Shown one piece after another: positions 35,237-60,536 of a stretch of DNA of 64,000 nucleotides. The notes below the pieces were generated by a model. The model saw nothing but the letters and a program-made list of their open reading frames with translations. It was not told the DNA's origin and ran no database searches. How positions within the stretch are numbered: the first letter of the stretch is position 1; each line of letters begins with the position of its first letter. The stretch comes from Patescibacteria group bacterium (GTDB lineage: Bacteria; Patescibacteriota; Microgenomatia; UBA1400; PJMF01), in the NCBI GenBank assembly GCA_049322655.1, contig JBMORP010000006.1:576410-640409 (forward strand), read 5' to 3'. Both the position numbers and the translations under genes were made by a program.

Positions 35237-35292
35237 AAGTTTATTATACCTTGAATTAAATGGATGTCCCAAAGCAAAGGTAGTCAAGTTGT

Positions 35293-35345
35293 GGTCAGGT
35301 TGTGGTGAGACACTTACCCACGGGGGAAAGGGGGTGTGGTGTTAT
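35293..35345 (+). repeat. copy 1 of the conserved G-rich intergenic motif (TTGTCAG-N9-TGAGAYRCTYACCCACGGGGKRAAGGGG)
   Basis: GTGGTCAGGTTGTGGTGAGACACTTACCCACGGGGGAAAGGGGGTGTGG. Confidence 0.6.
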
Positions 35346-35352
35346 TGAGTTT

Positions 35353-35775
35353 TTAAAGAATTTTTACCCCAAAGATAATCTCTAGGATTTGGGCTACCCA
35401 ATAAGAAGCAAACAAAATCAAAAAACCAACAATAGCCATGGTGACTCGTTTTTTACCTTCTTCTAAGCTTTTAGCATTAGTCGCTCCAGCTAGAATTTGT
35501 AACCCACCGGCTACAATCATGACAAATAAAGCTAAACCAGCAATTGGAAAAGCAAAAGTTAGTGCTCGGCTAATGATTCCTCCTGGGGTAGAGAGTTCAG
35601 CTGCATGGGGGGAGTTAGCTACTTTTAGTGGATCAAATGAGTCTAAAACATCAGATGTAACTTCATAAGAGTTTTCTTCAGCTGGTAAATCGGCAGCATT
35701 AACTAGAGTTGGAGAAACTAAACTTAGCCAAACTAGACTGGTTAAAACTAGCATTTGTTTGATTTTATTATTCAT
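35353..35775 (-). CDS. TrbC/VirB2-like pilin-family small membrane protein (paralog 8)
   Basis: Start set to the ATG at 35775 (MNNKIKQMLVLTSLVWLSLVSPTLVNA signal peptide; GGAGG SD 8 nt upstream). C-terminal LAGATNAKSLEEGKKRVTMAIVGFLILFASYWVAQIL matches the family core. Confidence 0.5.
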   Translation of the reverse strand: MNNKIKQMLVLTSLVWLSLVSPTLVNAADLPAEENSYEVTSDVLDSFDPLKVANSPHAAELSTPGGIISRALTFAFPIAGLALFVMIVAGGLQILAGATNAKSLEEGKKRVTMAIVGFLILFASYWVAQILEIIFGVKIL

Positions 35776-35779
35776 GTTT

Positions 35780-37006
35780 TTAGCCTCCAAAACCAGGGAT
35801 CTGGAATAGGTTGACACCAATAAATCTTAGCATGGTAATAGAGAAGATGATAAAGACCATGCCGATAATAGCTGAAGTAATCTGCTCTTTAGCATCTTTG
35901 GTTGCTTGTGGGTCTCCTTGAGAAACAGATAATCTAAATGCTCCAGCCAGAATTAGTAAGAAGGTGGCACCCCCTCCAACGCTTAAACCAACGGTAATAA
36001 AGGTTTTGATAATGCTATCAGGTTTAGCTGGAATACAGCCAATCGCAGTCCACACGCCAGCATTGCCATTGAAAGTTTCTCCACCGAAACAAGCTTGGCA
36101 TTTATCCCGGTCTTCAGCTGTAGCCTGTTCACACAGTTCAAAGTTTTTCACCATCACGTTCTCAGAAACATCAGTTCTAATGTCATCACACATTTCGTCT
36201 TCACAGTAGTCAATGGTGTTAAAACTAGTTGAACAGCCAGGAAAAATATATTTGGGACCTTCAGCAGTCTCTACATGAATTTTATAGGTAGTTTGATTGT
36301 CAGCTTCAAAACTAGCAGAGGCTTTACCTCCTGTAGCTTTGGTTTTTTCGTCAGCAGTGCTCCCACCCTTAATGACAAATTTTACTTCACCAGAGAAGGG
36401 TTTGCCTTGTGAATCTTCCAAACCCTCGACTTCTATTTTGGTGGTAGAAGAAGTTGTGTCCATGCAGCCAGATGAATAACAGGTTTGCCCATCCCTACTT
36501 TGTGAAACATACAAAGCACATTTGCCACCAGTGTTGTTGTTGCTAGTTTTATAAGTACCAGCATCACAGATTTTTGAACCATTTTTATAGATAGAAATAT
36601 AATGTTCTGCTTCTTCGCCACTGATTCCCCAGTGAGTTAATGCACCTTCTTCTTTAATTGTCCAAGTAACCTTACCATTTTTTAAGTTAAGAGTATTGCT
36701 ACCATTGGTCAGAGTACCACTTTTGGTAGTTTTAAATTTGGCTGAAGTTGCTTGAGCGTCTCCCCACCAGCCACTAACAACTATTTCGTATTCACCATTT
36801 GGATCATAACCACTACTCATATCGATTTCGATAGTGTGAGAGGTGGTGCCAGCAGGCAAAGTGCCTCTTGCTCCACTCAGTACGCCACTACATGAGCCAA
36901 CAGCTTCCACATTAGTGACACTAATTGCCAAGAAAGATAATCCCAAAAAGATAGTAAGGAAAATTTTTTTAACCAAAACAAAAAATGATTGATAAGTCTT
37001 AATCAT
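35780..37006 (-). CDS. secreted Cys-rich ectodomain fused to a C-terminal TrbC/VirB2-like pilin module (candidate minor pilin/adhesin)
   Basis: Signal peptide, a ~300-aa Cys/Thr/Gly-rich domain, then IGCIPAKPDS...GDPQATKDAKEQITSAIIGMVFIIFSITMLRFIG, which matches the pilin-family core. Confidence 0.5.
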   Translation of the reverse strand: MIKTYQSFFVLVKKIFLTIFLGLSFLAISVTNVEAVGSCSGVLSGARGTLPAGTTSHTIEIDMSSGYDPNGEYEIVVSGWWGDAQATSAKFKTTKSGTLTNGSNTLNLKNGKVTWTIKEEGALTHWGISGEEAEHYISIYKNGSKICDAGTYKTSNNNTGGKCALYVSQSRDGQTCYSSGCMDTTSSTTKIEVEGLEDSQGKPFSGEVKFVIKGGSTADEKTKATGGKASASFEADNQTTYKIHVETAEGPKYIFPGCSTSFNTIDYCEDEMCDDIRTDVSENVMVKNFELCEQATAEDRDKCQACFGGETFNGNAGVWTAIGCIPAKPDSIIKTFITVGLSVGGGATFLLILAGAFRLSVSQGDPQATKDAKEQITSAIIGMVFIIFSITMLRFIGVNLFQIPGFGG

Positions 37007-37109
37007 GTTAAATACTTTAAATCTGGTTTTTATGGAGTTTATTTTATCATGAGCTGAGTTTGTTCAGCTAGTCGTAGCTTCAAACTATTTTCGTCTATAT
37101 AATAAAGAT

Positions 37110-38804
37110 GTGTTTAGAGAAAAAAGACTACGATCTTTTGTGTTTTTGTTTCTATTTTTAGTCGTTGGGGTTTTTGTTTTTAAATCAGAATCAATCCAAG
37201 TTTTTGCTGAAGATCCAGTGTCTACTTTACAAAGACAGATTGATGAGCTCGAACAATTAAAAAAACTTTCAGAAGACGCGACCAAGCCATTAGAAGCAGA
37301 ATTAAATTCTTTAGAGAAAAAAATTGCTAATGCCAGACAAAGTATCATTAATGCTCAGCGACAAGCCAAAGAGTTAGAAAAAACTATTGAAAAAAGAGAG
37401 GAAGATGTTGCTGTTCAGTATGTTATTTTTTCTAACAGAATTGCTCAACAATATAAAAGATCACGAACTTTTTCACCTTTGCTGCTGTTTTTTAACAGTA
37501 GTAATGCCAGTAAGTTGACCAAAAACTTAGCTTACAGTTCTTCTGTTCAGGCTCAAGACAACCGATTAATTAGGTCTTTGACCGAAGAAATAATGAAACT
37601 AGAAACAGATAAAAACAAGCTAGAAACAGATCAAGTTACTCTGGCTTCTTTGGAAAAACAACTTGATAGTCAAGCTAGTTTTTTTAAAGTGGAAATCGAC
37701 AAAGCCAAAGACTACCAGTCTGAGCTAGCTGGTCAAATTGCTACTTTATCTGCTAGACAACAAGAAATTATTAATGCTAGGTCTGGGACTTTTACGGCTT
37801 CGATCGGTAATAGTGAGCTAGCTGATGACTACAATGCCTCAATTAAAGGTTTTAGAGAAGCTGCTCCAACTGGTAGCTTTGCAGTTTTTTCTTTTGGTGC
37901 TTACACTCATCGCAAGGGGATGAGTCAATATGGAGCTAGGGGCAGAGCTCAAGCTGGCCAAAACTTTAAACAAATTCTTCAAGCTTACTATGGTAAGGAA
38001 CCAGTTAATAAAGACACTGGAGGAAATATTAGTGTGGCTGGCTATGGTTCAATCGAGTTCGAAACGACCTACTTATATGGGATCGCCGAGATGCCATCTA
38101 GCTGGAGTTTAGAAGCATTAAAGGCCCAAGCGGTAGCAGCTAGAACTTATGCTTATCGCTATAAACAAGAGGGCAAAGAAATCTGTACGACGGAAGCTTG
38201 CCAGGTTTTTAATAAAGCAAAATCAGATAGTCCACCAAGCGCCTGGAAGCAAGCTGTTGATGAAACCAAAGGTCAAGTTTTGGAAGATGTCGTAACTTAT
38301 TATGCTTCTACTCATGGAGGTTATGCTTCACCGATTGGTTGGGATACTACAGATGGTTCTGGTGGGAGTGATTTTATTGATAAATCTTATGACAAGCTGG
38401 GGGGCTCTCCCTGGTTATATAAAGCTTGGTACACCAAAGGGTATAGTCCTTCATCTGATAAGTGTGGCAGGGCGAATCCTTGGTTAACTGGGGCCGAGCT
38501 TGCTGACATTATTAATGCCGCTAAATACCGTGATGATCGAGTAACACCAATCACCACGGCCTGTTGGGGTGGCAACCCTTATTCTCATGAAGAGCTTAGA
38601 GCTAAAGCAAATGGACCTGCCAATGTAACAGGAGTGACAGTTAAACAAGGTAATGGAAGTACTTCTGAGGTTGTGTTCCAAACAGACAAAGGAACGATTA
38701 CTTTATCTGGCTCAGATTTTAAAACAGCTTTTAATCTGCGTGCTCCTGGTCATTTATCAATCCCTCAGAGCGGTTTTGCTTTTTTCAATATTGAACACAA
38801 ATAA
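37110..38804 (+). CDS. secreted coiled-coil protein with C-terminal SpoIID/LytB-like domain
   Basis: GTG start, signal peptide, ~200-aa coiled coil, then ALKAQAVAARTYAYRY, characteristic of SpoIID/LytB. Confidence 0.6.
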   Translation: MFREKRLRSFVFLFLFLVVGVFVFKSESIQVFAEDPVSTLQRQIDELEQLKKLSEDATKPLEAELNSLEKKIANARQSIINAQRQAKELEKTIEKREEDVAVQYVIFSNRIAQQYKRSRTFSPLLLFFNSSNASKLTKNLAYSSSVQAQDNRLIRSLTEEIMKLETDKNKLETDQVTLASLEKQLDSQASFFKVEIDKAKDYQSELAGQIATLSARQQEIINARSGTFTASIGNSELADDYNASIKGFREAAPTGSFAVFSFGAYTHRKGMSQYGARGRAQAGQNFKQILQAYYGKEPVNKDTGGNISVAGYGSIEFETTYLYGIAEMPSSWSLEALKAQAVAARTYAYRYKQEGKEICTTEACQVFNKAKSDSPPSAWKQAVDETKGQVLEDVVTYYASTHGGYASPIGWDTTDGSGGSDFIDKSYDKLGGSPWLYKAWYTKGYSPSSDKCGRANPWLTGAELADIINAAKYRDDRVTPITTACWGGNPYSHEELRAKANGPANVTGVTVKQGNGSTSEVVFQTDKGTITLSGSDFKTAFNLRAPGHLSIPQSGFAFFNIEHK

Positions 38805-38838
38805 CTAAATTTAGTGAGATAAAGTTGGCAATGGATTT

Positions 38839-39165
38839 TTAGACAAAAGCTCTTTTTAGGCCAAATTTATTGAGAGGATTGTTGGTTGTGACTTGATTAT
38901 TTTTGGTTAAAGATGGTAGTTGAGGGATTTTACTAGGTTCAATGGCAATTTTTTTTGGTTCAGGTAAGGTCTTAAGTTGTTGTTGATCTAGCTTAGGGGC
39001 TTCTTTTTGTGGAGATAGTAGGTGAATATCTTTACTATTATCATAAGGTCTGATGATGGCAATTGGTTTTGAACGATACATTAATAGGAAACTCTCTCCT
39101 TTGTTCAATGCTCGATGAATGGGAGAAAAACTTTGTCTGAACTGTTTCATTGACACAATTTTCAT
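38839..39165 (-). CDS. hypothetical protein
   Basis: 108-aa ORF, no recognizable motif. Confidence 0.3.
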   Translation of the reverse strand: MKIVSMKQFRQSFSPIHRALNKGESFLLMYRSKPIAIIRPYDNSKDIHLLSPQKEAPKLDQQQLKTLPEPKKIAIEPSKIPQLPSLTKNNQVTTNNPLNKFGLKRAFV

Positions 39166-39245
39166 GCTACCTACCAGTGTACTGAAAAAACTAGAGTCTC
39201 GTCAAACCAATCTTTAAAGTTCAAATTAGTCCATTGTTAGTAGTT

Positions 39246-39293
39246 TTGTCAGGTTGAAGTGAGACACTTACCCACGGGGGAAGAGGGGAGGGC
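39246..39293 (+). repeat. copy 2 of the conserved G-rich intergenic motif
   Basis: TTGTCAGGTTGAAGTGAGACACTTACCCACGGGGGAAGAGGGGAGGG. Confidence 0.6.
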
Positions 39294-39306
39294 AAAAAAT
39301 TATTTT

Positions 39307-41253
39307 TTAAACTCCTTGTAAATACTTAGCTGCCCAAGGTCGGTAATTAGAATAGTAGGTTTTTTGTCTGATTATTTCGCCATTTTTATCTTTAACGGTG
39401 TGGGTAAATTGAGCCTTAATGCCGCTAGCAGCCCAATCAATTTGTTTAGTTTGACCGGTGGGCAAGGATGGATCTGGTACATAAACAGGAGGAAGCGGTT
39501 CTCGAAAATCCCAAGATTTATAGTTTGTTATCTCGGTTGTTCTGCCATCGCTAGTGCCATAAAGCTCCACTTTCATATAAAGATTTTGGCTGTCTGCTTC
39601 TGTGTAAATGAGGACATAGTTATTGGTATCGTTAATGAATCTGAGATCGACATTACCATCATAGACAGTGGCATCAAAACCAGGATTATTATCTAGCTCA
39701 TAGTAACTAACGCGGTAACTATGAGGCAGCCTTAAGGTAATATTGAGACCAGCATCCAACAAAGATCTAAAGAGAGTGGTGCTGACTTGACAAACCCCGC
39801 CACCGTCTCCCAAGACAGTTTGACCATCTTTAATTACATAGGCTGGTTTGTAACCGGTTAGAGCCGAGACCTCTCCAAGAGCTTTGTTAAAAGAGAACTC
39901 TTTTCCTGGTGGAACTATTGAGTAATTAATTTTTTGAGCAGTTAAAGCTACATTATGAATTCTACTAGGAATACTGTGGGCATAATAACTATCTCCAAAA
40001 CCAATTCTTTCAGCTATACCGAGATTATTTGTGTCAGCCAAACTAACATCAGGAGGAGAGGCAGTGATTGGAAACTCTTGTGTGATTGAGGTGGTAGTTG
40101 TAGTTTCTGAAGTTTGACTGAGTAAATCAGTAATTGTTTGTTTGATCATAGCGACTGTCTTAGCCTGATCCAGAACAAGCCCTTCTTTATGAGGTTTAAA
40201 TTTTGTGACTTTGAAGGTTTGTTTGTCAAACTCAAACTCAGCATTTTGGGCTGGTCTATCTAATTTTTGTTTCCAAACATCAATTTTTTTTTGGATTTTT
40301 TCATCGATAAAACCGCTAGGAAAAGTCAAAAAAGATACTAGGTCTTGATCAGTGAGTTTTTCTTTTGTTTTGTCATAAGTGAAGATTAGTTCTTGACCAA
40401 CTAATTTTTGAGCTGTTTTCAAAGCAGTGGTGGTTTGAGAACTATCGAGAGTTTTACTTAGCCAGTGAGTAATGGGTTTAAAGGTTAGAGTGGGTTGCTT
40501 TTTTATATTTGTTAAAGAACTGTTTGTTTCTAAAAATTTGTTCAATTCTTTGATTGTTTGTTCAACATCAATGCCTAAAACGTTTTCACCTGGATTTAAA
40601 ACCAATGATTGAGGGTTGTTAGATTGTTCTAGCGTAATTTGAGGAAGGCTTGGCTCCTGGTTAAATTGATTTTTAACTATAGTTATAAATTCAGCTAGTT
40701 TTTGTTGATCATATTTAATTGGCAATGAATGTGATTTTGGTTGATAGGGAGAAAAAAAGAGTTTTCCTAACCAATGAAGTGGTTGTTGCTGCTGGTCTTT
40801 TAAGATTTTGGTTAAAGTAGCTTCGTAATCGTAGTAAGCGGACAGAGTTGTTGAAGCTGTCGCAACTGAAAAGTCTTTTTTTTCAAAGTTATCCAAATCA
40901 AGGTTGTTTGCTATTTGAAATTCTTCAGTATTTAAAGCAATTATTAAATTGTGTTCTAGGGGAATGGGGTATTGTTGGCTAATTTTTTGGAGAGTTTCTT
41001 GTTTGTTTAAACCGCCAATTCTGACTTCCTCGAGGTATGTTTCCGGAAGAAATTTGGAAGAAGAATAGGCAACAAACAAACCCATGGTGGTAATGACTAA
41101 AACAAGAGAAAAAAGACTTATTACTTGAAAATTCTTGGATTGTTTTTTTTCGAATGGATTGAGTTTTTCCTCAAGAATGATCGGTGCTTTCTTTTTACTT
41201 AAAAAGAACCAATTGCCCAACTTGAACTTGATAGGGTGACCAAAACGCTCCAT
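39307..41253 (-). CDS. VanW-domain membrane-anchored protein
   Basis: N-terminal TM; C-terminal GDGGGVCQVSTTLFRSLLDAGLNITLRLPHSYRVSYY matches the VanW domain signature. Confidence 0.65.
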   Translation of the reverse strand: MERFGHPIKFKLGNWFFLSKKKAPIILEEKLNPFEKKQSKNFQVISLFSLVLVITTMGLFVAYSSSKFLPETYLEEVRIGGLNKQETLQKISQQYPIPLEHNLIIALNTEEFQIANNLDLDNFEKKDFSVATASTTLSAYYDYEATLTKILKDQQQQPLHWLGKLFFSPYQPKSHSLPIKYDQQKLAEFITIVKNQFNQEPSLPQITLEQSNNPQSLVLNPGENVLGIDVEQTIKELNKFLETNSSLTNIKKQPTLTFKPITHWLSKTLDSSQTTTALKTAQKLVGQELIFTYDKTKEKLTDQDLVSFLTFPSGFIDEKIQKKIDVWKQKLDRPAQNAEFEFDKQTFKVTKFKPHKEGLVLDQAKTVAMIKQTITDLLSQTSETTTTTSITQEFPITASPPDVSLADTNNLGIAERIGFGDSYYAHSIPSRIHNVALTAQKINYSIVPPGKEFSFNKALGEVSALTGYKPAYVIKDGQTVLGDGGGVCQVSTTLFRSLLDAGLNITLRLPHSYRVSYYELDNNPGFDATVYDGNVDLRFINDTNNYVLIYTEADSQNLYMKVELYGTSDGRTTEITNYKSWDFREPLPPVYVPDPSLPTGQTKQIDWAASGIKAQFTHTVKDKNGEIIRQKTYYSNYRPWAAKYLQGV

Positions 41254-41279
41254 AATAGATAGTTAATTGTAACTGATTT

Positions 41280-43049
41280 ATGAATACACCACTACCTAAA
41301 CCTTCTGAGCCAACCTCAAACCAATCTACTAGTAACAGTGGGGGGAGTGTTGGCTCGCCAACTCCTAATAATAATCAACCTGTTTTTCCTGATCCAGCCA
41401 AGATTGGACGCTCTGTTGCTCCAACTGGAGTGCCTAAAATGGAAGGGGTTAATCCTAATTTAGCTCCCAAGACTGAAGAACCAAGTGAAAAAGTTACTAG
41501 TAATCAACCACCAGCCAAATCAGAAACTGGTGGCCCTATGGTTACACCTCCGCCAAAATTAGGTGTCGATAAGCCAATTCAACCGTCAGCTCCTGTTAAA
41601 CCGTTAGTGGTTCCTCCTGGAGGAATTAAACCACCCACTCAGACTAATCAACCAGTGGTGGGTGCCAATCAACCCAAGATTGCCGTGGCAAAAAGCGATC
41701 CTAAAAAAATGATCTTGATTATTGCTGCTGTTCTGATTGGACTTGGGGTGATTGGATCTCTTTTGGCGAATGTCTTTGGTAGTAGAAAAACTACTTCGGT
41801 TGGTACTGGTAATACCCAGAATAATCAGGTTAATCAAGAAGTTGTGCCACCAGAAAAACAAACGGTTTTGACTTATTGGGGCTTATGGGAGCCAAATGCT
41901 GTTCTTGATGAGGTGATCCAAGAGTACCAAAAACAAAATCCAGCGATCAAGATTGATTACAGAATTCAATCTCATAAAGATTATCGGGAGAGATTACAAA
42001 CAGCGATTGCTTCTGGTAATGGTCCAGATATTTTTCGCTACCATGCTTCTTGGGTGAGAATGTTAAGTTCTGAATTAGCTGTTCTTCCGGCTAGTGTCAT
42101 GAGTGCGGCCGAATTTAAAGAAACTTTTTATCCAACAGCAGCCCAAATGTTACAGATAGAAGGCAAGATCGTTGGTTTACCAATTATGTATGAAGGTCTA
42201 GGTCTTTACTATAATAAGGATATTCTACAGACAGCTGGAGTTCAGCCCCCAACTACTTGGGCAGAACTAAAAAAACTAGCGGCTGAACTAAGTGTCCCTG
42301 CTGATAAAAATGCTCGGAAAAGCGGGGGTATTACCAGAGGTGGTTTGGCTATTGGTAATACAGAAAATGTTGATCATTTTGCAGATATTTTGGCTTTATT
42401 AATTTTGCAAAACGGGGGTACTCCTGGTGAACCAGCTTTTACCGAAGTTAGGGATGCCTTGGTTTTTTATAGCAATTTTGTCACTGAGGATGCTATTTGG
42501 AATAGTTCTTTACCCAGCTCTACAGTGGCTTTTGCTAAGGGTGATGCAGCCATGATGTTTGCTCCTACCTGGCGGGCTCATGAAGTGAAAGATCTTAATC
42601 CTAATTTAAACTTTGGCATTGCTCCAGTACCACAGCTTTCTGATGAGCCAATCGCTTGGGCTAATTATTGGGCAGAAGGAGTTAATGACAAAAGTTCTAA
42701 CAAGGAAGAAGCTTGGAAATTTTTGAAATATATGACTAGTGCAGAGGTAATGAAAAAACTTTATTCTGCTCAAAGTAATATTAGAACTTTTGGGGAACCT
42801 TACTCTAGAGTAGATCTGGCTAGCGAATTGGCTAGTGACCCTTATGTAGCTGGTGTTCTCAAAGATGCACCAGTTGCTGTGGGTTGGTATATGAGTTCTG
42901 CTACCCACGATAACGGTATGAATGACCAAATTATTGAATATTACAAAACAGCAATCAATCAGTTGGTTGCTGGTGAAGACGAAGAAGAAGTTTTATTGAA
43001 TTTGGAAAAGGGAGTTAAACAAGTTCTTCGACAATATGGCATAGAGTAG
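41280..43049 (+). CDS. ABC transporter substrate-binding protein (family 1, sugar-type) with Pro-rich N-terminal linker and TM anchor
   Basis: LTYWGLWEPN...KIDYRIQSHKDYRERLQTAIASGNGPDIFRYHASW is typical of extracellular solute-binding protein family 1; ~140-aa P/T-rich N-terminus and a TM helix. Confidence 0.6.
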   Translation: MNTPLPKPSEPTSNQSTSNSGGSVGSPTPNNNQPVFPDPAKIGRSVAPTGVPKMEGVNPNLAPKTEEPSEKVTSNQPPAKSETGGPMVTPPPKLGVDKPIQPSAPVKPLVVPPGGIKPPTQTNQPVVGANQPKIAVAKSDPKKMILIIAAVLIGLGVIGSLLANVFGSRKTTSVGTGNTQNNQVNQEVVPPEKQTVLTYWGLWEPNAVLDEVIQEYQKQNPAIKIDYRIQSHKDYRERLQTAIASGNGPDIFRYHASWVRMLSSELAVLPASVMSAAEFKETFYPTAAQMLQIEGKIVGLPIMYEGLGLYYNKDILQTAGVQPPTTWAELKKLAAELSVPADKNARKSGGITRGGLAIGNTENVDHFADILALLILQNGGTPGEPAFTEVRDALVFYSNFVTEDAIWNSSLPSSTVAFAKGDAAMMFAPTWRAHEVKDLNPNLNFGIAPVPQLSDEPIAWANYWAEGVNDKSSNKEEAWKFLKYMTSAEVMKKLYSAQSNIRTFGEPYSRVDLASELASDPYVAGVLKDAPVAVGWYMSSATHDNGMNDQIIEYYKTAINQLVAGEDEEEVLLNLEKGVKQVLRQYGIE

Positions 43050-43054
43050 CATAT

Positions 43055-44023: not shown

Positions 44024-44093
44024 GATAACAAGGGTAACCTGATTGTGTTTGTTTGACAAGCTATCTTTTAATTGAGGCTATATAATAACCACT

Positions 44094-45425: not shown

Positions 45426-45488
45426 AGCTTTAAAGTTTACAGCTTTATCTTTATACTTTTAATAACTAGTAAGTATTTAAAGGGAATC

Positions 45489-45785: not shown

Positions 45786-45795
45786 GATATCACTA

Positions 45796-47196: not shown

Positions 47197-47206
47197 ATAC
47201 CTCAAT

Positions 47207-47253
47207 TTGTCAGTTTAACCTGAGACGCTCACCCACGGGGTGAAGGGGCGGAG
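47207..47253 (+). repeat. copy 3 of the conserved G-rich intergenic motif
   Basis: TTGTCAGTTTAACCTGAGACGCTCACCCACGGGGTGAAGGGGCGGAG. Confidence 0.6.
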
Positions 47254-47260
47254 TAGATTT

Positions 47261-49474: not shown

Positions 49475-49494
49475 GGTGGAGAGAGAAGACTTGA

Positions 49495-49785
49495 CTAAAA
49501 TTCTTCTAATGGAACAACTGTTGTGCCAGCAACATGGTGAATTTCATTCATGATTTTGGCAAACATGATAGCTCTCAAACTGTTTGCTCCGGCAAATAAA
49601 CCAATAGTAGTGGCCTGGTCAAACATTTTTTCAGCAGTTGCCTTGTTTTCGTTAAGGGTGATAGGAGCTAATTCATTTTCTCCCAGCAGATCAATCACTA
49701 GTAAAGAAAAAACTCCATTTTCTAATAGTAGTTGTAGTTGAGTAGTTTCATTAGCATTTTCAGTTTTGATGATTTCTTTAGTCAT
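49495..49785 (-). CDS. hypothetical small protein
   Basis: 96-aa ORF; a TATAAT box lies ~14 nt upstream of its ATG on the minus strand. Confidence 0.35.
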   Translation of the reverse strand: MTKEIIKTENANETTQLQLLLENGVFSLLVIDLLGENELAPITLNENKATAEKMFDQATTIGLFAGANSLRAIMFAKIMNEIHHVAGTTVVPLEEF

Positions 49786-50385
49786 ATTAAAGAAGATTAT
49801 AGCTTATTTTAGTTTTTACACCAGTTTCCCCCAATCATGTTTTTAATGTAGATAACTTTTTAAATTAGTCTGGTTTTGTTTTAAAAAATATTATATAAGA
49901 TATCTAAAAAAATAAGTATTTATTATTATAAGATGCAAAAATTTGACAAAATGGTCCCAAAAGAGTTATAGTAAATTTGTTTTAAAAATAATAAGTAAAA
50001 GAAGCCGGTTTTTCACTGAAGGACTGAATAATTTAGTGATTCACAGGTTGGAAGATTCTTTGAAAAGTTGTTTTTAAGGCATTAAAAATGGAAGAATAAA
50101 TTCTCTAACAATTTTCCTCAAGATGGAAAACTAGAGATAAAAAAATCCACCGCAATTTGTAGATTCCAGAACATGGCAGGCAGAACTACAAACACGGTGG
50201 ATAAGGGTGCAAGATTACCGCTGGAAGACCACGAATAATATTGCTCTTTGATTCTCACTTGCCATTACGGTTTGTGAGAGTTGATCTGAACATAGCATTT
50301 TCGTCGGGTGGGGTAAACTAGATATTAATAATTGTTAATGTTCATTACTATATATTAATGTTCAGTCTTGCTGTATAATACGGGT

Positions 50386-50463
50386 TAGATTCGTGAAAGC
50401 GTTAAGTTGAAGTTCGGTTGGTTGGGCAGGCTACCGAACTTCAGCTTAGCGCTTTTTTTATTT
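50386..50463 (+). ncRNA. candidate small RNA: extended -10 promoter (TGcTGTATAAT 50369-50379) followed ~25 nt later by a 20-bp hairpin and a T-tract
   Basis: Stem GCGTTAAGTTGAAGTTCGGT (50399-50418) / ACCGAACTTCAGCTTAGCGC (50433-50452) with 2 mismatches, then TTTTTTTATTT. No ORF. A TTAATGTTCA direct repeat sits upstream (50355-50364 and 50347-50356 region). Confidence 0.3.
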
Positions 50464-50587
50464 GCCAAATAATTCCCAAAACGTCCTTATAACTTGTATA
50501 TTTTGATGCTTTTTGCTATAATTTGTAGGATTTGAGTCGTTTTCAAAGATTTTTGCAATCTCTAGAAAAAACTCAAGTTTTAGTTCT

Positions 50588-51010
50588 TTAACATGGGGAA
50601 AAACTTATTTTCTTAAGATTTTATTTTTTGGTTTTCTAGTGGATAACCCAGATTTAGAGATGGTGTCTTTAGATCTGGGTTATTCTGACTCTAGCAATGG
50701 AGGAGGAAGCCTAAATTTAATGTTCGTAAGGAGATAAGCATGGATTACGACAAAAAGTTTGAACGATGGTTGACGAGCGGAGTGAACTCAATTCCTCAGC
50801 TCAGGCGCAAAATTAAGCGACACCTCAGAAACACTCGCAATTCTGACTATCGGGCAATCATGAAACGATTGACCTGGGATGAGGAATATGCTGAGGACTT
50901 TCTTGGTTTAGCAAAATAGCGCCACCAACAAAATGAAGTATCTCCAAAGATGGAGGTGCGGGTTTGCCCGCACCTCCAATCTCCTGGCTAAAAACCAGGC
51001 CCCATGTTAA
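50588..51010 (+). mobile_element. inverted-repeat-bounded cassette-like unit 1 (423 bp) carrying a 59-aa basic ORF
   Basis: Perfect 11-bp terminal inverted repeats TTAACATGGGG (50588-50598) / CCCCATGTTAA (51000-51010); internal 13-bp-arm palindrome 50641-50685; GC-rich hairpin GGAGGTGCGGG-ttt-GCCCGCACCTCC 50951-50978. Confidence 0.45.
50740..50919 (+). CDS. small basic protein (59 aa) inside cassette unit 1
   Basis: AAGGAG SD 5 nt upstream of the ATG. Translation is MDYDKKFERWLTSGVNSIPQLRRKIKRHLRNTRNSDYRAIMKRLTWDEEYAEDFLGLAK. Just under the ORF-track size cutoff. Confidence 0.4.
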   Translation: MDYDKKFERWLTSGVNSIPQLRRKIKRHLRNTRNSDYRAIMKRLTWDEEYAEDFLGLAK

Positions 51011-51150
51011 TTTTTAAACCTGAATTAAACTAATTTTAGGCTCATATATTTTCTTATTTGACATATTGTGATATAATATGAATCTGTTAAATTTCTTCAA
51101 TTTGTATTTGCTACAAATTAACAAGATTTTTAACAACTAATTTTTGCTCG

Positions 51151-51728
51151 TTAACATGGGAAAATAGTTTTTAGGATACTTTTTGAATTGTTGTTAATAT
51201 TTGTATTTTTTAGATAGTCCCGGTTTGAAGAACTAAGTTCTTTTGACCGGGATTATCTATGAGCCTCTGCGTCAGCAGGGGAATATAGATGTCTACACTA
51301 TTTCAAGGAGTTCCCTGTGAACAATAAAGTTGATTACCGCTCTTTCATGAGCAACCTGCTCGATGGCGTCGAAACCGTCGAAGGACTGCGCGCCAAGGTC
51401 CGCCCGATGCTCGAAGACCGCAAGTCGGCTGACTACGTCAAGCCCGGCACCGAATGCACCTGTGATTGTGGTCGCGACCTCCGCGCCCACCTTCAGGACA
51501 TCCTGGACAATGATGACTTCGCTCAGCATCTGGTCGTCGGCCTGTCGTTGGCTGACCTTCTCGGCATGCTGGGGCTGTCCGCCTCTGGGCCTGGCCCGGA
51601 GACCATCATGACCGGCGTCATCATCATCGGCGACGAAGAAGACTAACCAACAACGCAGGCACAACCAACATGGCGCACGGGCTTGCCCGTGCGCCATCCT
51701 TGATGTTCACTAACTATTCCCATGTTAA
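51151..51728 (+). mobile_element. inverted-repeat-bounded cassette-like unit 2 (578 bp) carrying a high-GC 109-aa ORF
   Basis: Terminal inverted repeats (CG)TTAACATGGG 51151-51160 / CCCATGTTAA(CG) 51719-51728; internal palindrome TAGATAGTCCCGGT...ACCGGGATTATCTA 51211-51259; hairpin ATGGCGCACGGGC..GCCCGTGCGCCAT 51670-51697. The layout is collinear with unit 1. Confidence 0.45.
51317..51646 (+). CDS. hypothetical acidic protein (109 aa) with high-GC, GC3-biased codon usage, probably horizontally acquired
   Basis: GTG start with AAGGAG SD 6 nt upstream. Third codon positions are almost all G/C (GTC GAA ACC GTC GAA GGA CTG CGC GCC AAG GTC CGC CCG ...), unlike every other gene in the window. The overlapping ORFs 51293-51697(-) and 51363-51611(+) are high-GC artefacts. 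Confidence 0.5.
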   Translation: MNNKVDYRSFMSNLLDGVETVEGLRAKVRPMLEDRKSADYVKPGTECTCDCGRDLRAHLQDILDNDDFAQHLVVGLSLADLLGMLGLSASGPGPETIMTGVIIIGDEED

Positions 51729-51782
51729 CGACATCTACATATTTTGTAGTTTAAATTTCCCATTTTTTTATCCTATAACATT

Positions 51783-51817
51783 GACAAAACTGATGTTTTT
51801 TGTTATAATAACAGATC
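51783..51817 (+). promoter_or_regulatory. sigma70-like promoter for the sortase gene (near-leaderless transcript)
   Basis: TTGACA - 17 nt - TATAAT with a perfect consensus; the ATG at 51821 lies only 11 nt after the -10 box and there is no SD. Confidence 0.5.
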
Positions 51818-51820
51818 ATT

Positions 51821-52669
51821 ATGCAAGCTAATAACCAGACTAAATCAGCCAATTTTAGCCTTAAATCACTCAAAAGAGTGTTGGTTGGTGATGCTGGTTG
51901 GACTGATGGGCAAAAAGCTCAGCGCTTGCTTCAGCAAAAACAAAATAAAAGCCAAAAGAGACAAGCTCCTCAACGAGTAAATATTTTCAAGGCTTTTCTC
52001 AAAGCTGTGTTAAATTTATTGATTATTTTAAGTTTTGGTGGCTTAGTTTTTTGGCAAGGGCCAAAGCTCTTTTATACTATTTTTCCTCAAGAATCAGCCA
52101 ACCAACTAGTTCAAGCTGAGGAACTAACTGGTAACTTTGCCTTAGATTTTAGTATCTTGGACGAAGAAGCTACCAAAAGAAAAGTTTTACCTTCTCAAAG
52201 AAGCTACAAACCTGCTTATAATCCTGATTTGCCAGCTGGCAATTGGTTGATTATTCCTCGAATTGGAGTGAGATCAGAATTACAAAGAACCGAAAACTAT
52301 GAAGAGGCTTTACAGGTTGGTCTCTGGTGGGTACCAGATTTTGGTGAAGTAGGTGATCGATCTAAACCAATGATTGTCGCTGGCCATCGTTATGGTTTTG
52401 ACTGGTGGTGGAAAGATGATTATTGGAAATACCACTCTTTTTACTCTTTGCCAGACTTAGAACCAGGGGATAGAATTGAGATAATTGCTGATCAACGTAA
52501 ATGGATTTATGAGATTTATGCTGGTGAAGAAGGTGAGCAAATCACTGATTACCAGGCAGATTTAATTCTTTATACCTGCAAACATTTGGATTCACCAATT
52601 AGAATCTTTCGTTATGCTAAGTTGGTTGAGATCAAAGAAGAAAGTGCCCTGGGTATTTTGAGTAAATAA
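51821..52669 (+). CDS. sortase-family transpeptidase (membrane-anchored)
   Basis: N-terminal TM anchor; catalytic-core motifs LIIPRIGV, AGHRYG (His), LILYTCK (TLxTC Cys) and a downstream Arg (RIFRYAK). Confidence 0.65.
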   Translation: MQANNQTKSANFSLKSLKRVLVGDAGWTDGQKAQRLLQQKQNKSQKRQAPQRVNIFKAFLKAVLNLLIILSFGGLVFWQGPKLFYTIFPQESANQLVQAEELTGNFALDFSILDEEATKRKVLPSQRSYKPAYNPDLPAGNWLIIPRIGVRSELQRTENYEEALQVGLWWVPDFGEVGDRSKPMIVAGHRYGFDWWWKDDYWKYHSFYSLPDLEPGDRIEIIADQRKWIYEIYAGEEGEQITDYQADLILYTCKHLDSPIRIFRYAKLVEIKEESALGILSK

Positions 52670-52808
52670 ACCAATCTTAGCTTGGAAACAACAATTTTTG
52701 GTTTATTTAATGTAAATGTAAGAAGGTTAAATTTTATACAGCTTTGCTCTGTTTTTGTAAGGTATAATACTAAGCTTCTTTCTTATTTTAAAAAGGTAGA
52801 AAAAACTT

Positions 52809-53543
52809 ATGAAAAATCAAGTAAAACTAGCTGCATTTGATGTTGATGGAACACTGAGTACTGGGGTTTTATCGTTGGCTTTTCTTGAAGAACTAGTTAA
52901 AAGAGGTTTGTTTAGTAAACAATTTTTTAACAAACTTCATGGCCTTGAAGTTGATTATGCTCAAGGAAAACTAGAGAGAGAAGAAATGTCTGAGTTATGG
53001 CTACAAAACTATTTGCAAGCCATGAAAGGCAATGATCCAGAGCAATATATCAAAACAGCGGCAGAGGTTTGGGAAAGAGCGAAAGATAATACTTTTGCCT
53101 TTGTCCAACCAATGTTGACTCAGTTAACCGAAAAAGGTTACACCACCCTAGTGATTAGTGCTAGCCCAGATGAAATTGTGAGGTTTTTTTGTGCAGCGCA
53201 TAACTTTACGCCAGACAGATTTAGAGCTACTAAGGTTAAGGTTGATGAATTTGGTAGGTATACTGATCAAACAGAGATTATCTTGGCTTTGGCTAAGCAC
53301 AAGCTAGACCAACTTCACGGTTTGGCGGAAAACTTATATCCTGAACAAACCATTGATTGGCAAAGCTCATTGGCGATGGGAGACTCTTATTCTGATTTGG
53401 AAATGTTAAGAGCGATTGGTAAACCAGTAGTGATGAAGGAATCAACTAGGGAACCAAATGAACTAGTGAAAATCGCTGAAGAGAACAACTGGACAGTGGT
53501 TGATGAAAACACTGCACTTGAGAAAATTCTGGCTTTAGTCTAA
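52809..53543 (+). CDS. HAD-superfamily hydrolase (HAD-IB / phosphoserine-phosphatase-like)
   Basis: Motif I AAFDVDGTL at the N-terminus and a C-terminal GDSYSDLEM (motif IV-like). Confidence 0.6.
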   Translation: MKNQVKLAAFDVDGTLSTGVLSLAFLEELVKRGLFSKQFFNKLHGLEVDYAQGKLEREEMSELWLQNYLQAMKGNDPEQYIKTAAEVWERAKDNTFAFVQPMLTQLTEKGYTTLVISASPDEIVRFFCAAHNFTPDRFRATKVKVDEFGRYTDQTEIILALAKHKLDQLHGLAENLYPEQTIDWQSSLAMGDSYSDLEMLRAIGKPVVMKESTREPNELVKIAEENNWTVVDENTALEKILALV

Positions 53544-53550
53544 AGCTTTT

Positions 53551-53579
53551 TTGACAAAAAAGAGCTTCTTTGCCATAAT
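53551..53579 (+). promoter_or_regulatory. sigma70-like promoter upstream of rho, giving a long (~130 nt) leader
   Basis: TTGACA (53551-53556) - 17 nt - CATAAT (53574-53579). Confidence 0.45.
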
Positions 53580-53712
53580 ACCGTAATTCTCATTTGGTTT
53601 TATCTATTTTTAGATAGCTAAGGCAGAAAGAACTTCCCAAATTTTTTGAAGTTATCATGATCCAGTTATTATTTTTTGTCATAAGTAAATAAAGAAAGGA
53701 AACAGACGCTGT

Positions 53713-55092
53713 ATGCCAGCTAAATCTGATATTTCTACAGAAGAGCTTGTTGGACAAGCTCCTAAAAAAGAAACTGAAGCTAAAGAGGTAAGTAAAACCT
53801 TGGTGGCTAAAACAGTTGACAAACCTTCAACCGAAAAAGTTGAAGAAAAACCCATTCCCACCAAAGAAGTTGGTCGGGTAGTGGTTTCTACTAAATCAAG
53901 AGTTAACCCTCATGGTCGAATTAAGGCTGGTTTTTCTAAAACCATGGCTACGCCCAAAGACGATGATGTCGAGGTAATCACTGGAATTCTTGATAATTCT
54001 CGTGACGGTCATGGCATTTTACGAGTTTCTTTCTCTGAGGACGACCACGATACCTATATCTCTAATTCTCAGGTAAGAAGATTTAAACTCAGGCCAGGTG
54101 ATGTTATCACTGGTCCCGCTAGAAGGCCTAAGGATAACGAAAGATATTGGGGCTTACTCCAAGTGGATAGAATTAATGATCAAGAAGTTGACGAGTTTTT
54201 GAGAAATTCACGAACTGTTTTTAAAAACTTAACTCCAGTTTATCCCGATGAACAAATTAAGTTAGAAACTGGGGCCGAGCCACTATCTCTTAGAATGATT
54301 GACATGATCGCGCCGATTGGTAAAGGCCAAAGAAGTTTGATTGTCTCTCCTCCCAAAGCAGGTAAAACAACTTTGCTGAAAAATATTGCTACTGGTGTGG
54401 CAGCCAACAATCCAGAAATTCATTTGATGGCGGTATTAGTTGGGGAAAGACCAGAAGAAGTGACTGATATTAAACGTCACATTGAAGCTTTGACTAAAGG
54501 TAAAGGTGAAGTAGCTGCGAGTAATTTTGATGAATCAGCCCAGGACCAAGTTAGAGTGGCTGAGTTGGCTCTGGAAAGAGCTAAAAGATTAGTTGAATCT
54601 GGTAGAGATGTTTTAATTCTTTTAGATTCGATCACTAGATTAGCTCGAGCTTATAACCTAGCGATGCCAACTTCAGGGAGAACCCTGTCTGGTGGCTTTG
54701 ATCCAGCTGCCTTGTTTCCTCCCAAAAAGTTCTTTGGGGCAGCAAGAAACTTTGAGATTCCTGGTTCATTAACGATTGTTGGTACGGCTTTAGTCGATAC
54801 TGGTTCTAGAATGGATGATCTTGTTTATGAAGAGTTCAAAGGCACTGGTAATCAGGAGGTTCATCTTGATAGAACTTTGGCTGAAAGAAGAATTCATCCA
54901 GCAATTGATGTTCAGCGATCTGGGACTCGAAGAGATGATTTAATGATGGATCCAATGGTTTATCAATCAGTGATTACGCTTCACAGAATGTTGGATATGT
55001 TAAACAAAGAAGAACGTACCACTACTTTGATCGAAAAACTCAAACGAACTAAGTCTAATAAAGACTTTTTAGCCTCTTTAAAGGCTGGTTAA
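53713..55092 (+). CDS. rho: transcription termination factor Rho with Lys/Glu-rich N-terminal extension
   Basis: RNA-binding domain RRFKLRPGDVITG, Walker A GKGQRSLIVSPPKAGKTTLL, and the C-terminal R-loop/Q-loop region. Confidence 0.9.
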   Translation: MPAKSDISTEELVGQAPKKETEAKEVSKTLVAKTVDKPSTEKVEEKPIPTKEVGRVVVSTKSRVNPHGRIKAGFSKTMATPKDDDVEVITGILDNSRDGHGILRVSFSEDDHDTYISNSQVRRFKLRPGDVITGPARRPKDNERYWGLLQVDRINDQEVDEFLRNSRTVFKNLTPVYPDEQIKLETGAEPLSLRMIDMIAPIGKGQRSLIVSPPKAGKTTLLKNIATGVAANNPEIHLMAVLVGERPEEVTDIKRHIEALTKGKGEVAASNFDESAQDQVRVAELALERAKRLVESGRDVLILLDSITRLARAYNLAMPTSGRTLSGGFDPAALFPPKKFFGAARNFEIPGSLTIVGTALVDTGSRMDDLVYEEFKGTGNQEVHLDRTLAERRIHPAIDVQRSGTRRDDLMMDPMVYQSVITLHRMLDMLNKEERTTTLIEKLKRTKSNKDFLASLKAG

Positions 55093-55162
55093 TTTGTTAC
55101 TGAAACCCTGTACTAGCAATAGTGCAGGGTTTAGAATGTTCTTTTAAGAATTATTACTGTCT

Positions 55163-56287
55163 ATGCAAGAAAGAAAGTTTAGTTTGCAAGGCTCTGAGCT
55201 AGTTCAAGATCTCGGTAGCTATTTTGTTTTCTTGCGTTCCTACCTAAAATTCAGAGGTTATGGCTGGTTTTCAAGGTTTGAAGTAGGTAAAGACTTTATT
55301 GTTGATTTGCTTTACAAAAAACGTGGCCGTTATGCTCGGCCATTTTTACATTTTGGCACGATTGGGTTGGTTTTTTTGCTGATTACTCTTGGTCCAGTTA
55401 TTTTTAACGATAATGAAGAGCAACAAGCAGGTGGCATTGGGCCAATTTTAAATAGTGCTACTGCTTATGCTCCTGATTTTTATACCCTTCAAGCTGAGGA
55501 GGTCCGTCAATATCGGGGTGGAGAGATCCTTATGCATATTGTGACAGAAGGGGAAACTCTTTCCTCAATTGCACAGCGATATGGCTTACAAATAGAAACT
55601 ATTCTTTGGGAAAATAACTTAACAGAAACCTCTAAAATCAAGCCTGGGGATGAATTAAGAATCTTACCTCTTGATGGCATTAGGCATAAGGTGGCTCGTG
55701 GTGAAACAATCTTTTCGATTGGGAAGAAATATGGTCTAGAAGGCTCTCAAGTTCAGGTAATAGTTGACTACCCGTTCAATGAGTTTTTAAATGACGAAAC
55801 TTTTGATGTGGTTGCCGGCCAATACTTAATGATTCCAGATGGAGTTAAACCTTCCGCTGTTACAACCACTACCACGGCTGCTAGATTTGGTACTTTGACT
55901 CCAGATGCGGGCAGTGTTTCTGCTTCTGGCTCATTTATTTGGCCAGCTTCTGGTCGAATTACTCAGGGTTATCGTTTTTACCACAAGGCTATTGATATTG
56001 CCAACAAATCTGGTGGTTCTATTTTAGCTGCTGATGCTGGTGTGGTGACTGTCGCTGGTTGGCCAGATAGCTCTGGTTATGGCAATAGAGTGATCGTTGA
56101 TCATGGCAATGGCTTTGTGACGCTATATGCACATATGAGCGTCATTCAAGTTAAAGCAGGCCAAAGAGTTAAAAGAGGTGACGTACTAGGCCAAATGGGT
56201 AATACGGGCAGATCTACTGGGACTCACTTACATTTTGAGATTAGACAGGGTGGGGCGTTGTTGAATCCTCAATCATATTTGAAATAA
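55163..56287 (+). CDS. membrane-anchored peptidoglycan hydrolase: 2x LysM + M23 peptidase
   Basis: Two LysM repeats (HIVTEGETLSSIAQRYGL; HKVARGETIFSIGKKYGL) and C-terminal GDVLGQMGNTGRSTGTHLHFEIR. Confidence 0.8.
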   Translation: MQERKFSLQGSELVQDLGSYFVFLRSYLKFRGYGWFSRFEVGKDFIVDLLYKKRGRYARPFLHFGTIGLVFLLITLGPVIFNDNEEQQAGGIGPILNSATAYAPDFYTLQAEEVRQYRGGEILMHIVTEGETLSSIAQRYGLQIETILWENNLTETSKIKPGDELRILPLDGIRHKVARGETIFSIGKKYGLEGSQVQVIVDYPFNEFLNDETFDVVAGQYLMIPDGVKPSAVTTTTTAARFGTLTPDAGSVSASGSFIWPASGRITQGYRFYHKAIDIANKSGGSILAADAGVVTVAGWPDSSGYGNRVIVDHGNGFVTLYAHMSVIQVKAGQRVKRGDVLGQMGNTGRSTGTHLHFEIRQGGALLNPQSYLK

Positions 56288-56336
56288 GTTTCTTTTCCCA
56301 ATAAAAAACCAAATTACCAGGTATAATATTAAGCTA

Positions 56337-57506
56337 ATGATTGATTTAGTCAAACTAAAACTAATAGCTGGTGATGGTGGGCATGGCAGAGTGTCTTTCC
56401 GTCGGGAAAAATATGTGCCCAAAGGTGGCCCAGATGGTGGCTATGGTGGTGATGGTGGTCATGTGATTATTGAATCTACTAAACACATTAATACCTTGAA
56501 ACATTTAACCGGTAAAAAAGAAATCACAGCTTTTGCCGGAGAGATTGGTGGCAGAAGGAAAAAGACTGGTGAAAGAGGTGAAGATATCGTTGTAAAGGTC
56601 CCAGTGGGGACAGTGATTTGGGTAGAGAAGGAGAATCAACCTTCTTTTTTCAGAAGAAAAAAATATGGAGTTGAGTATTTAGTTAATAAGAGTGAGGTGG
56701 AATTGGATAAATATTCTGTTGAAAAAGAGGGTCAAGGTATCCCTTTCAGAGAATCAAGTGAGTGGCTGGAGATTGAAAGAGTCCCGGTTTTCACTTTTGA
56801 TCAACCAGATCAACGAGTAATCATTTGTCAGGGTGGTTTTGGTGGTAGAGGTAATGTGGCTTTTAAAAGTGGTAGCAATACTACGCCATTAGAGGCTGAA
56901 TATGGCTCTTTTGCTGAGAAGAAGTTAGTAACTTTGGAACTTAAATTATTGGCGGATATAGGGTTAGTGGGTTACCCAAATGCAGGGAAAAGTACGTTGC
57001 TGTCCAAAATTACTAAAGCTAATCCTAAAACAGCCAACTATCCATTTACTACGATTGAACCCAACTTGGGTGTTTTAAGTTTTGGAGCAGAAAAAGATGT
57101 AGTGGTGGCTGATATTCCTGGTTTAATTGAAGGTGCCAGTGAAGGCAAAGGCTTAGGATTAGATTTTTTGAGGCATGTGGAAAATAGCAGAGTTTTACTT
57201 TATGTTTTGTTTTTGGAAGAAGAACAACTGAGTGATAAAAACTTAACGGTTGCTGAAAAAACAGCATTAATTTGGCAGCAATACCAATTATTGCAAAAAG
57301 AATTAAAAAACTATCATCCATCGTTAATTAAAAAACCTTTTGTGGTGTCGGTTAATAAAATTGATCTTTATGATCAAGAACTACAACAAGCCATTAAAGA
57401 AAAATTTGAACAAGCCAGAGTAAAGGTCTTACTATTTAGTGGTTTTACTGGCGATGGCTTGACAAAACTAGTTAAGAAATTAGAACAAGTTTTAGCAAAA
57501 AATTAG
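56337..57506 (+). CDS. obg: GTPase Obg/CgtA
   Basis: Gly-rich Obg fold MIDLVKLKLIAGDGGHGRVSFRREKYVPKGGPDGGYGGDGG and a G-domain GYPNAGKSTLL. Confidence 0.9.
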   Translation: MIDLVKLKLIAGDGGHGRVSFRREKYVPKGGPDGGYGGDGGHVIIESTKHINTLKHLTGKKEITAFAGEIGGRRKKTGERGEDIVVKVPVGTVIWVEKENQPSFFRRKKYGVEYLVNKSEVELDKYSVEKEGQGIPFRESSEWLEIERVPVFTFDQPDQRVIICQGGFGGRGNVAFKSGSNTTPLEAEYGSFAEKKLVTLELKLLADIGLVGYPNAGKSTLLSKITKANPKTANYPFTTIEPNLGVLSFGAEKDVVVADIPGLIEGASEGKGLGLDFLRHVENSRVLLYVLFLEEEQLSDKNLTVAEKTALIWQQYQLLQKELKNYHPSLIKKPFVVSVNKIDLYDQELQQAIKEKFEQARVKVLLFSGFTGDGLTKLVKKLEQVLAKN

Positions 57507-57529
57507 TTATAAGTTTTCAAAATTTGATA

Positions 57530-57580
57530 TTTTTTACACCCCTTTCCCCCGTGGGTAAGTATCTCATCTTTAGCTGACAA
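57530..57580 (-). repeat. copy 4 of the conserved G-rich intergenic motif (reverse orientation)
   Basis: Reverse complement reads TTGTCAGCTAAAGATGAGATACTTACCCACGGGGGAAAGGGGTGTAAAAAA. Confidence 0.6.
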
Positions 57581-60520: not shown

Positions 60521-60536
60521 AAAAGAAAAAGGAAAA

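Follow-up and report, generated by a model that had tools for sequence, protein, structure and literature searches.

A discrete repeat of about 48 bp is present four times in the DNA analysed here (the window), a stretch of 64,000 nucleotides from a Patescibacteria group bacterium (GenBank assembly GCA_049322655.1, contig JBMORP010000006.1, positions 576,410 to 640,409). From comparison of its sequences, we are firm in regarding it as a clade-specific element of mobile origin that has been kept by selection as a linear sequence. The element is not palindromic and consists of the box TTGTCAG, a 7-nt spacer that is fixed in length and free in sequence, the invariant 20-nt core TGAGACACTTACCCACGGGG, an A-rich linker of 4-5 nt and GGGG, usually followed by TGTGG. 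When the flanks of the copies are aligned, similarity ends at about 48 bp. An earlier note on this DNA had listed four intergenic copies, and both parts of that statement hold. A search for the core, TGAGAYRCTYACCCACGGGGKRAAGGGG, allowing ≤3 mismatches, found matches at 35306-35333 (+), 39260-39287 (+, 2 mismatches), 47221-47248 (+) and 57539-57566 (-), referred to as copies 1 to 4, and none in 100 shuffles, so that the copies are real and not due to chance. An unfiltered profile of 15 copies recovered all four and no further copy in the window at E≤10. Two degenerate copies listed in the same note were excluded. For the first (49817-49845), the likeness is confined to positions 49813-49832 and to the tail of copy 4. 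This sequence (GAGGAAAACTGGTG...) is also found upstream of the orthologous small gene in element-free relatives, and is therefore an older promoter-region sequence. The second (61861-61880) lies inside the C-terminal coding sequence of a 691-aa gene.

When one genome per species (185,579 species) was scanned with the exact pattern, there were 30 matches. The whole element was present in 12 of these, all in two metagenome-assembled genomes (MAGs) with 37 % G+C, CAYSQA01 and CAYPPX01 (GCA_964412775.1), and the others were single chance matches in high-G+C genomes. The two MAGs contain 5 and 6-7 exact matches, and all copies are singletons. Identity to the window is about 90 % for CAYSQA and about 70-80 % for CAYPPX, which is syntenic with it. 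The records of both (L001-L029) are titled 'uncultured Pseudomonadales bacterium', a label that is evidently wrong for 37 % G+C sequences that are syntenic with the window at 70-90 % identity. Further copies were found in a Joint Genome Institute (JGI) contig, L041, and in a Logan contig, L043. Two more Logan contigs, L039 (5688-5710) and L040 (2651-2680), from a relative with a 90 % identical RadA, end inside the element, which indicates that it breaks short-read assemblies of these genomes. The element was not found in the viral contigs, plasmids and phages searched, and a metagenome pattern scan gave no true copy in a collection that did not include JGI contig L041, a real carrier. No analogous repeat family was found in an element-free sister genome.

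With orthologous copies counted once, nine independent loci are known, represented by about 17 copies in four or five related genomes. The loci are those of a type IV secretion system (T4SS) pilin, VanW, T4SS coupling protein/RadA, Obg, UvrA, an M16-type peptidase, SmpB, a 367-aa surface-type protein and dUTPase (site 9). Exact-pattern matches in the fragmented MAGs correspond to about 8-12 copies per roughly 1-Mb genome. The UvrA locus (MFZ5437497.1) is on another contig, of 272 kb, showing that the element is present elsewhere in the genome, and the copies in CAYSQA01, CAYPPX01, L041 and L043 show that it is present in related genomes.

Relatives that lack the element, with RadA 75-85 % identical, have kept the gene order. 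The VanW site is empty in L033, L034 and L036, where the flanks align and about 70 nt are missing. The RadA site is empty in L033, L036 and the P0005 contig, where the two genes abut or overlap, and at the Obg site L036 has an ordinary hairpin terminator only. L037 also belongs to the relatives with sites 2-4 empty. The UvrA site is filled in L020, L026, L041 and L043, where CCACACCCC...CTGACAA follows straight after the stop codon, and is exactly empty in the sister L042 (...AAATAA, CTATAT, ATAAATATATAG), with flanks that are 80-90 % identical on both sides. L033 and L042 are both Logan contigs of SRR31802804. As the conserved stretch ends at about 48 bp and a filled allele differs from an empty one by that block only, the possibility that the copies are fragments of one larger decayed element is refuted. 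There are no terminal inverted repeats, as the ends, TTGTCAG... and ...GGGGTGTGG, are not complementary, and the alignment of filled and empty UvrA sites revealed no target-site duplication that can be distinguished from the AT-rich background. In a neighbour-joining tree of RadA, which as a single gene is indicative only, the element-bearing genomes group together, with the element-free P0004 and P0005 as sister. Because the element is absent at the same loci in sister lineages, it appears to have inserted in the ancestor of the clade. The parsimonious reading of these alignments is a burst of at least nine intergenic insertions in the common ancestor of one genus-level Paceibacteria-related clade, and the original spread would have used some insertion mechanism that leaves no inverted repeats.

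The copies fall into two classes, a 'G' sub-lineage (window, CAYSQA and L043) and a 'T' sub-lineage (CAYPPX and L041), and the parts of the element differ in how far they have diverged. Core identity is 0.97-0.98 in all four classes of pair and G-run identity is 0.96-1.00, compared with 0.70-0.96 for the 5' box and 0.38-0.73 for the tail. Identity of the 7-nt spacer is 0.52 between close orthologs and about 0.35 across lineages (range 0.33-0.52). As the spacer has diverged while the core was kept, the spacer can be used as an internal neutral yardstick, and by that measure strong purifying selection acts on the core at each locus. Conservation of the core is not an artefact of the way in which copies were found, since independent recovery of the orthologs of window sites 2 and 3, and of those of the UvrA and dUTPase sites, gave intact copies each time.

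The linker shows another pattern, with an identity of 0.93 for close orthologs, 0.66 for paralogs within a sub-lineage and only 0.41 for cross-lineage orthologs, and there is a G-type linker (GGGGGAAAGGGG) and a T-type linker (GGGGTAGAAGGGG). At sites 2 and 9, one sub-lineage has GAAGA as its linker and the other has TAGAA. ACGGGG is followed by G in 9/10 'G' copies and by T in 5/6 'T' copies, and only the 'G' sub-lineage has retained GTTG as the first bases of the spacer. This pattern may reflect sequence transfer between copies or co-evolution with a trans-acting reader, and we consider the latter more likely. We note that positions 1-410 of L013 and 1-410 of L017 are 100 % identical over 410 bp, despite an identity of only about 76-78 % between their MAGs otherwise, and that L013 carries the linker type of the other lineage. 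This identity is probably due to cross-binning of one contig.

Every copy is intergenic and is found at the 3' end of a gene. At 8/9 loci the C-rich strand is the sense strand and starts 0-36 nt past the stop codon (two-sided binomial p=0.039). The remaining locus is dUTPase (site 9; L001/L011), where the G-rich strand is sense and the core is intact in both sub-lineages. TA(A/G/C) or TTA is found directly before the C-rich end at 6/9 sites. At three of the nine loci the flanking genes converge; where they are in tandem, the element is near the upstream stop and promoter-like sites follow it (copies 1 and 2). Four of the about nine known sites are within 22 kb, 20-45 kb from dnaA, and the others are on other contigs. 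In contig 1 of CAYPPX (363 kb), both exact matches are within 18 kb that are syntenic with this region.

Copy 1 (35292-35339, G-rich strand on +) has an orthologous copy in L016. Its C-rich strand is sense to a T4SS-pilin-like gene (35353-35820, -), the stop codon of which is 13 nt away, and an 873-aa Cys-rich gene begins 56 nt downstream of the copy, at its probable GTG start (35236). The 5' box of this copy is duplicated in tandem (35283-35293, +), with GTCAAGTTGTG beside GTCAGGTTGTG, and similar doubled TCAG boxes are present in L001, L009 and L011. Copy 2 (39246-39292, +), with orthologous copies in L016 and L015/L038, is 14 nt past the stop of the VanW gene (39307-41253, -), to which its C-rich strand is sense, and 81 nt upstream of a 108-aa gene (start 39165). 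Copy 3 (47207-47253, +) occupies the gap where radA (stop 47196) and the T4SS coupling-protein gene (stop 47261) converge, and is the only copy with changes in the core (CGC, CTC). It has an ortholog in L029/L038 and partial copies at the ends of contigs L039 and L040. Copy 4 (57536-57580, -, with the G-rich strand on -) starts 29 nt past the obg stop (57506), with its C-rich strand sense to obg, and is placed between obg and a G+C hairpin terminator with T/A runs on both sides (57585-57610, not assigned to a strand) that is common to obg and a 687-aa gene. This hairpin is older than the element, as it is found in element-free relatives too. Copies 3 and 4 had both been described as lying beside bidirectional terminators. 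This is correct for copy 4, where a terminator scan detected only the separate neighbouring hairpin, and incorrect for copy 3, where no terminator-like site was found; the scan detected none at copies 1 and 2 either.

Both strands were folded as RNA and as DNA, giving z-scores of -1.8 to +0.5, mostly near 0 and no better than those of dinucleotide shuffles. RNAalifold gave -3 kcal/mol and no compensatory pair. The best hairpin (TYACCC-ACG-GGGKRA) has three invariant G-C pairs, a mismatch in 10/15 copies and one compensatory cell in 90. A mini-stem pairing GTC with GAC across the spacer was rejected, as it is broken without compensation in L001, L009, L011 and L015, and so was an intrinsic terminator, as the terminator scan detected no G+C hairpin with a U-tract in the element itself. 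A search of the whole window gave no Rfam match at the gathering score, and only noise at E≤10 around copy 1. A small structured RNA and a repetitive extragenic palindrome (REP)-like element, both suggested in the earlier note, are thus not supported, both because neither strand folds better than shuffles and because covariation is essentially absent.

The combination of a bipartite site, a neutral spacer of fixed length, no secondary structure and lineage-specific sub-sites points to a protein. Each copy would be under selection to be recognized by a sequence-specific factor acting in trans, and this factor would itself have drifted between sub-lineages; we judge a protein-binding site to be the likeliest of the four options raised previously, the fourth being an uptake signal. 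For its role, we tentatively favour a factor-dependent boundary signal at transcription-unit 3' ends, involved in termination or insulation, while recognizing that this may well be wrong. The signal might be recognized in the C-rich transcript as it emerges, perhaps with the help of Rho, or might form a polar roadblock on the DNA. A boundary role is suggested by position and orientation only, and several observations weigh against it. Site 9 is reversed and its core is equally intact, so a role that depends on a C-rich strand in the mRNA can be at most part of the explanation. At the same loci, element-free relatives do without the element, and copy 4 is beside a normal terminator, with no evident need for another. 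The sense strand has a C>G skew (C/G 1.3-3.2), which is not unusual in this genome, so that a rut (Rho utilization)-like skew is present and is not a distinctive sign. There are just nine independent loci, and a tendency to insert at TAA, and not function, could explain the orientation bias. In a more elaborate form, which we regard as doubtful, this would be an undescribed two-part system of Paceibacteria, in which a dedicated protein co-evolves with a site of about 48 bp present at about ten portable positions. The sites could be polar terminators or insulators, or could serve in organizing the origin domain or in uptake recognition, and would have been spread by insertion and fixed by host selection.

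A DNA site that a chromosome-level protein recognizes in double-stranded form, whatever the neighbouring genes, and that serves origin-domain organization, segregation or condensin loading, or another non-transcriptional role, would account directly for the conservation of site 9 in reverse orientation. The window contains the origin of replication (oriC), and the clustering of four of about nine sites at 20-45 kb from dnaA fits this reading, as do the confinement of both exact matches in contig 1 of CAYPPX to the region syntenic with the window and the lack of a canonical parS in the 64 kb around oriC. The bipartite structure, with its neutral fixed spacer and sub-lineage-specific parts, would equally suit a co-evolving DNA-binding protein. 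However, the element is asymmetric and, at 48 bp, unlike known parS, matS and Noc sites, five sites are elsewhere, one of them on a different contig, and no ParB-like gene was seen in the window. The clustering could equally be due to local hopping, and the 8/9 orientation bias and closeness to stop codons are left unexplained. We consider this reading unlikely. We give a similarly low probability to a selfish miniature mobile element, mobilized in trans by an enzyme encoded elsewhere, whose copies would stay uniform through occasional re-copying or gene conversion and bring the host no benefit. Position and orientation would then reflect a target preference, just 3' of TAA/TAG, together with tolerance of insertions at gene ends. 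The clean presence or absence of a 48-bp block, the local clustering and tandemly duplicated 5' box, the TA(A/G/C) or TTA before the C-rich end at 6/9 sites and the short-read contigs that break inside the element are all as expected of such an element, and the parallel linker changes at different loci need at least one transfer between copies. Set against this, there are no terminal inverted repeats, no clear target duplication and no hairpin, no transposase in the 64 kb, no RAYT (REP-associated tyrosine transposase; Y1 HUH transposase) among the window open reading frames (ORFs) scanned with Pfam, and only about 10 copies. In addition, at least four insertions predate the sub-lineage split and have kept 20/20 or 18/20 core positions while the spacer was randomized, and neutral decay of inert copies would not leave such old cores intact.

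A DNA uptake signal of a competence pilus machinery, maintained and homogenized by biased uptake followed by recombination, is much less probable than either of these. Type IV pilin-like genes are present at 59747-61776, and molecular drive produces just such strongly conserved copies, 'dialects' of sub-lineages and indifference to orientation as at site 9. Natural competence, which is reported for Saccharibacteria (PMC10633639), is also in its favour. On the other side, the density is about 1 per 16 kb here (4 per 64 kb) and about 1 per 80-100 kb genome-wide, and the core is 20 nt in a 48-bp unit and not 9-12 nt. The known DNA uptake sequences (DUS) of Neisseria and uptake signal sequences (USS) of Haemophilus occur about once per kb. 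The element is never inside genes, arrived as an inserted block and not via point mutation, and is lacking in close relatives that share these pilin and T4SS genes. The suggestion of an uptake-signal-like sequence therefore fails on density, length, exclusively intergenic location and the way in which the element arose. Least credible of all is a small RNA gene family or structured cis-regulatory RNA. The copies are intergenic and strongly conserved, a 6-bp hairpin and a 3-bp outer stem are preserved in copy 3 by two paired changes, and the C-runs resemble the C-rich seeds found in some Gram-positive small RNAs, but the Rfam, folding and covariation results give no support, there is no conserved promoter or terminator, and copy 4 begins 5 nt after the terminator of another gene.

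Other candidates were considered and rejected. A coding or read-through function does not fit the distance to the upstream stop, which is not in one frame, or the varying length of the linker; the in-frame position of the UvrA copies results solely from their lying directly against the stop. The upstream stops are TAA or TAG and not TGA, which excludes an element like a selenocysteine insertion sequence (SECIS). The sole hint of a tRNA fragment was an E=4 match to a phage tRNA-Pro, and ARAGORN finds no tRNA. TTGTCA or CTGACA could serve as the -35 of a sigma-70 promoter, but there is no conserved -10. As an anti-Shine-Dalgarno mimic, CACCCCCUUUC resembles the 3' end of 16S rRNA in copy 1 only, and the relevant bases are in the variable linker. 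No complementary partner sequence of ≥10 nt is present in the window. For parS, in addition to the asymmetry of the element, no 16-bp palindrome like TGTTNCACGTGAAACA was found in the window with ≤3 mismatches. As a DnaA box, CTTACCCAC matches TTATCCACA at 7/9 positions, but the real boxes in the dnaA-dnaN spacer are of the TTTTCCACA type. A likeness of CACTTA to CACTATA, which we take to be the motif of phage-type RNA polymerase promoters, involves a less conserved part or the wrong context, and a likeness of the GGGGTGTGG tail to what is presumably the F-type nick site (GGGGTGT/GGTG) of an origin of transfer (oriT) involves the least conserved part of the element. No relaxase domain was found in the window by the Pfam scan, so an oriT or relaxase site was also set aside; T4SS clusters of Patescibacteria are mostly without relaxases (PMC12102498).

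Comparison with known systems found none that matches in all respects. REPs, and the bacterial interspersed mosaic elements (BIMEs) built from them, which are associated with RAYT in Proteobacteria, are also short (about 35-50 bp), extragenic, mostly just downstream of genes and lineage-specific, and host proteins bind them in known cases. However, they form imperfect palindromes and number tens to hundreds, often as inverted pairs or clusters, whereas the element occurs as about 10 singletons and does not fold. Miniature inverted-repeat transposable elements (MITEs) and Correia-type elements share with it the discrete inserted non-coding block, presence or absence at orthologous loci, location at gene ends and breakage of assemblies, but the element has no terminal inverted repeats or recognizable target-site duplication, is extremely small, and its old copies are conserved. 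The DUS of Neisseria and USS of Pasteurellaceae are likewise clade-specific, conserved per copy, divided into lineage 'dialects' and often behind genes; the element differs in being 50-100 times less dense and four times longer, in never being in coding sequence and in having arisen by insertion. Polar protein-binding sites that number about 10 per genome (Tus-Ter, RTP-Ter) and factor-dependent polar transcription terminators of eukaryotes (Sal-box/TTF-I, mTERF sites) resemble it in that they are asymmetric, about 20-50 bp, low in copy number, dependent on orientation and highly conserved. Unlike Tus-Ter and RTP-Ter, it does not have a fork-trap orientation, as three copies face one way and one the other within 22 kb beside oriC, and no family of bacterial terminators acting as protein roadblocks is known or was identified in this analysis. 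The rut sites of Rho-dependent terminators are also C-rich, G-poor, unstructured RNA right after the stop at operon ends, and Rho is encoded nearby, but rut sites are neither conserved in sequence nor repeated and the most conserved part of the element (GUGGGUAAGUGUCUCA) is not C-rich. No description of a short interspersed repeat in Patescibacteria was found in the literature searches made. In the small, dense genomes of this group, a 48-bp non-coding block unchanged at about 10 loci through speciation stands out. If it is indeed a boundary or recognition site, it would provide a first handle on how Patescibacteria delimit transcription units or chromosome domains, and a portable part for the patescibacterial genetic tools under development. 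In practice, the element is a marker of the clade, and short-read assemblies break at it, as two contigs end inside it.

The host is not one of the Saccharibacteria. Its RadA and UvrA are closest to those of Candidatus Pacebacteria and 'Patescibacteria group' MAGs; the RadA of the window is identical to MFZ5438332.1, encoded on a 652-kb contig, and the next named relatives are Candidatus Pacebacteria. The origin region in the window (11800-15600) includes rpmH, dnaN (12633-13736) and dnaA (14006-15496), and the window also has yidC and jag. DnaA-box-like 9-mers (TTTTCCACA, TTATCCCCA) are present in the dnaA-dnaN spacer (13737-14005), and these and the gene content place oriC near 13.7-14.0 kb. 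GC skew goes positive to the right of about 13.7-14.0 kb. A monoderm-type T4SS cluster (VirB4, 15612-17681, PrgI-like and M23 hydrolase) directly adjoins dnaA, an arrangement that has been described for Patescibacteria (PMC12102498). Pfam confirms Rho (53713-55092), Obg, VanW, the T4SS coupling protein and three type IV pilin-like genes in the window. Six genes encode a T4SS pilin domain, four of them arranged in tandem at the left end (547-2681) and two beside copy 1 (35353-37006), which fits the multiple VirB2-like paralogs noted for Patescibacteria.

The 873-aa Cys-rich protein downstream of copy 1 is secreted, and its apparent GTG start (35236) is 6 nt after TATAAT (35248-35243), with TTGGGA 18 nt upstream. 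From this spacing, the mRNA of the gene appears to be leaderless-looking. Convergent genes often abut or overlap in these genomes (window 2681-2688 and 6151-6155; L033 11443-11446; L036 11464-11467), leaving no room for a terminator, and overlapping convergent transcription seems to be tolerated.

The 2-kb stretch at 49786-51820, between a 96-aa gene and a sortase gene, is gene-poor and variable, and different small ORFs are found there in relatives. It includes two homologous leaders of about 165 nt (50570-50745 and 51135-51320), each before a small ORF and each with TTAACATGGGRAAA, a long hairpin, in which the versions differ by paired changes, and AAGGAG. The ORF after the second leader (51317-51646) encodes 109 aa with no Pfam match and has 59 % G+C, compared with 37 % G+C for the genome, and is followed by a perfect 12-bp G+C hairpin (51670-51697). 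This stretch looks like a cassette-like insertion site for foreign genes.

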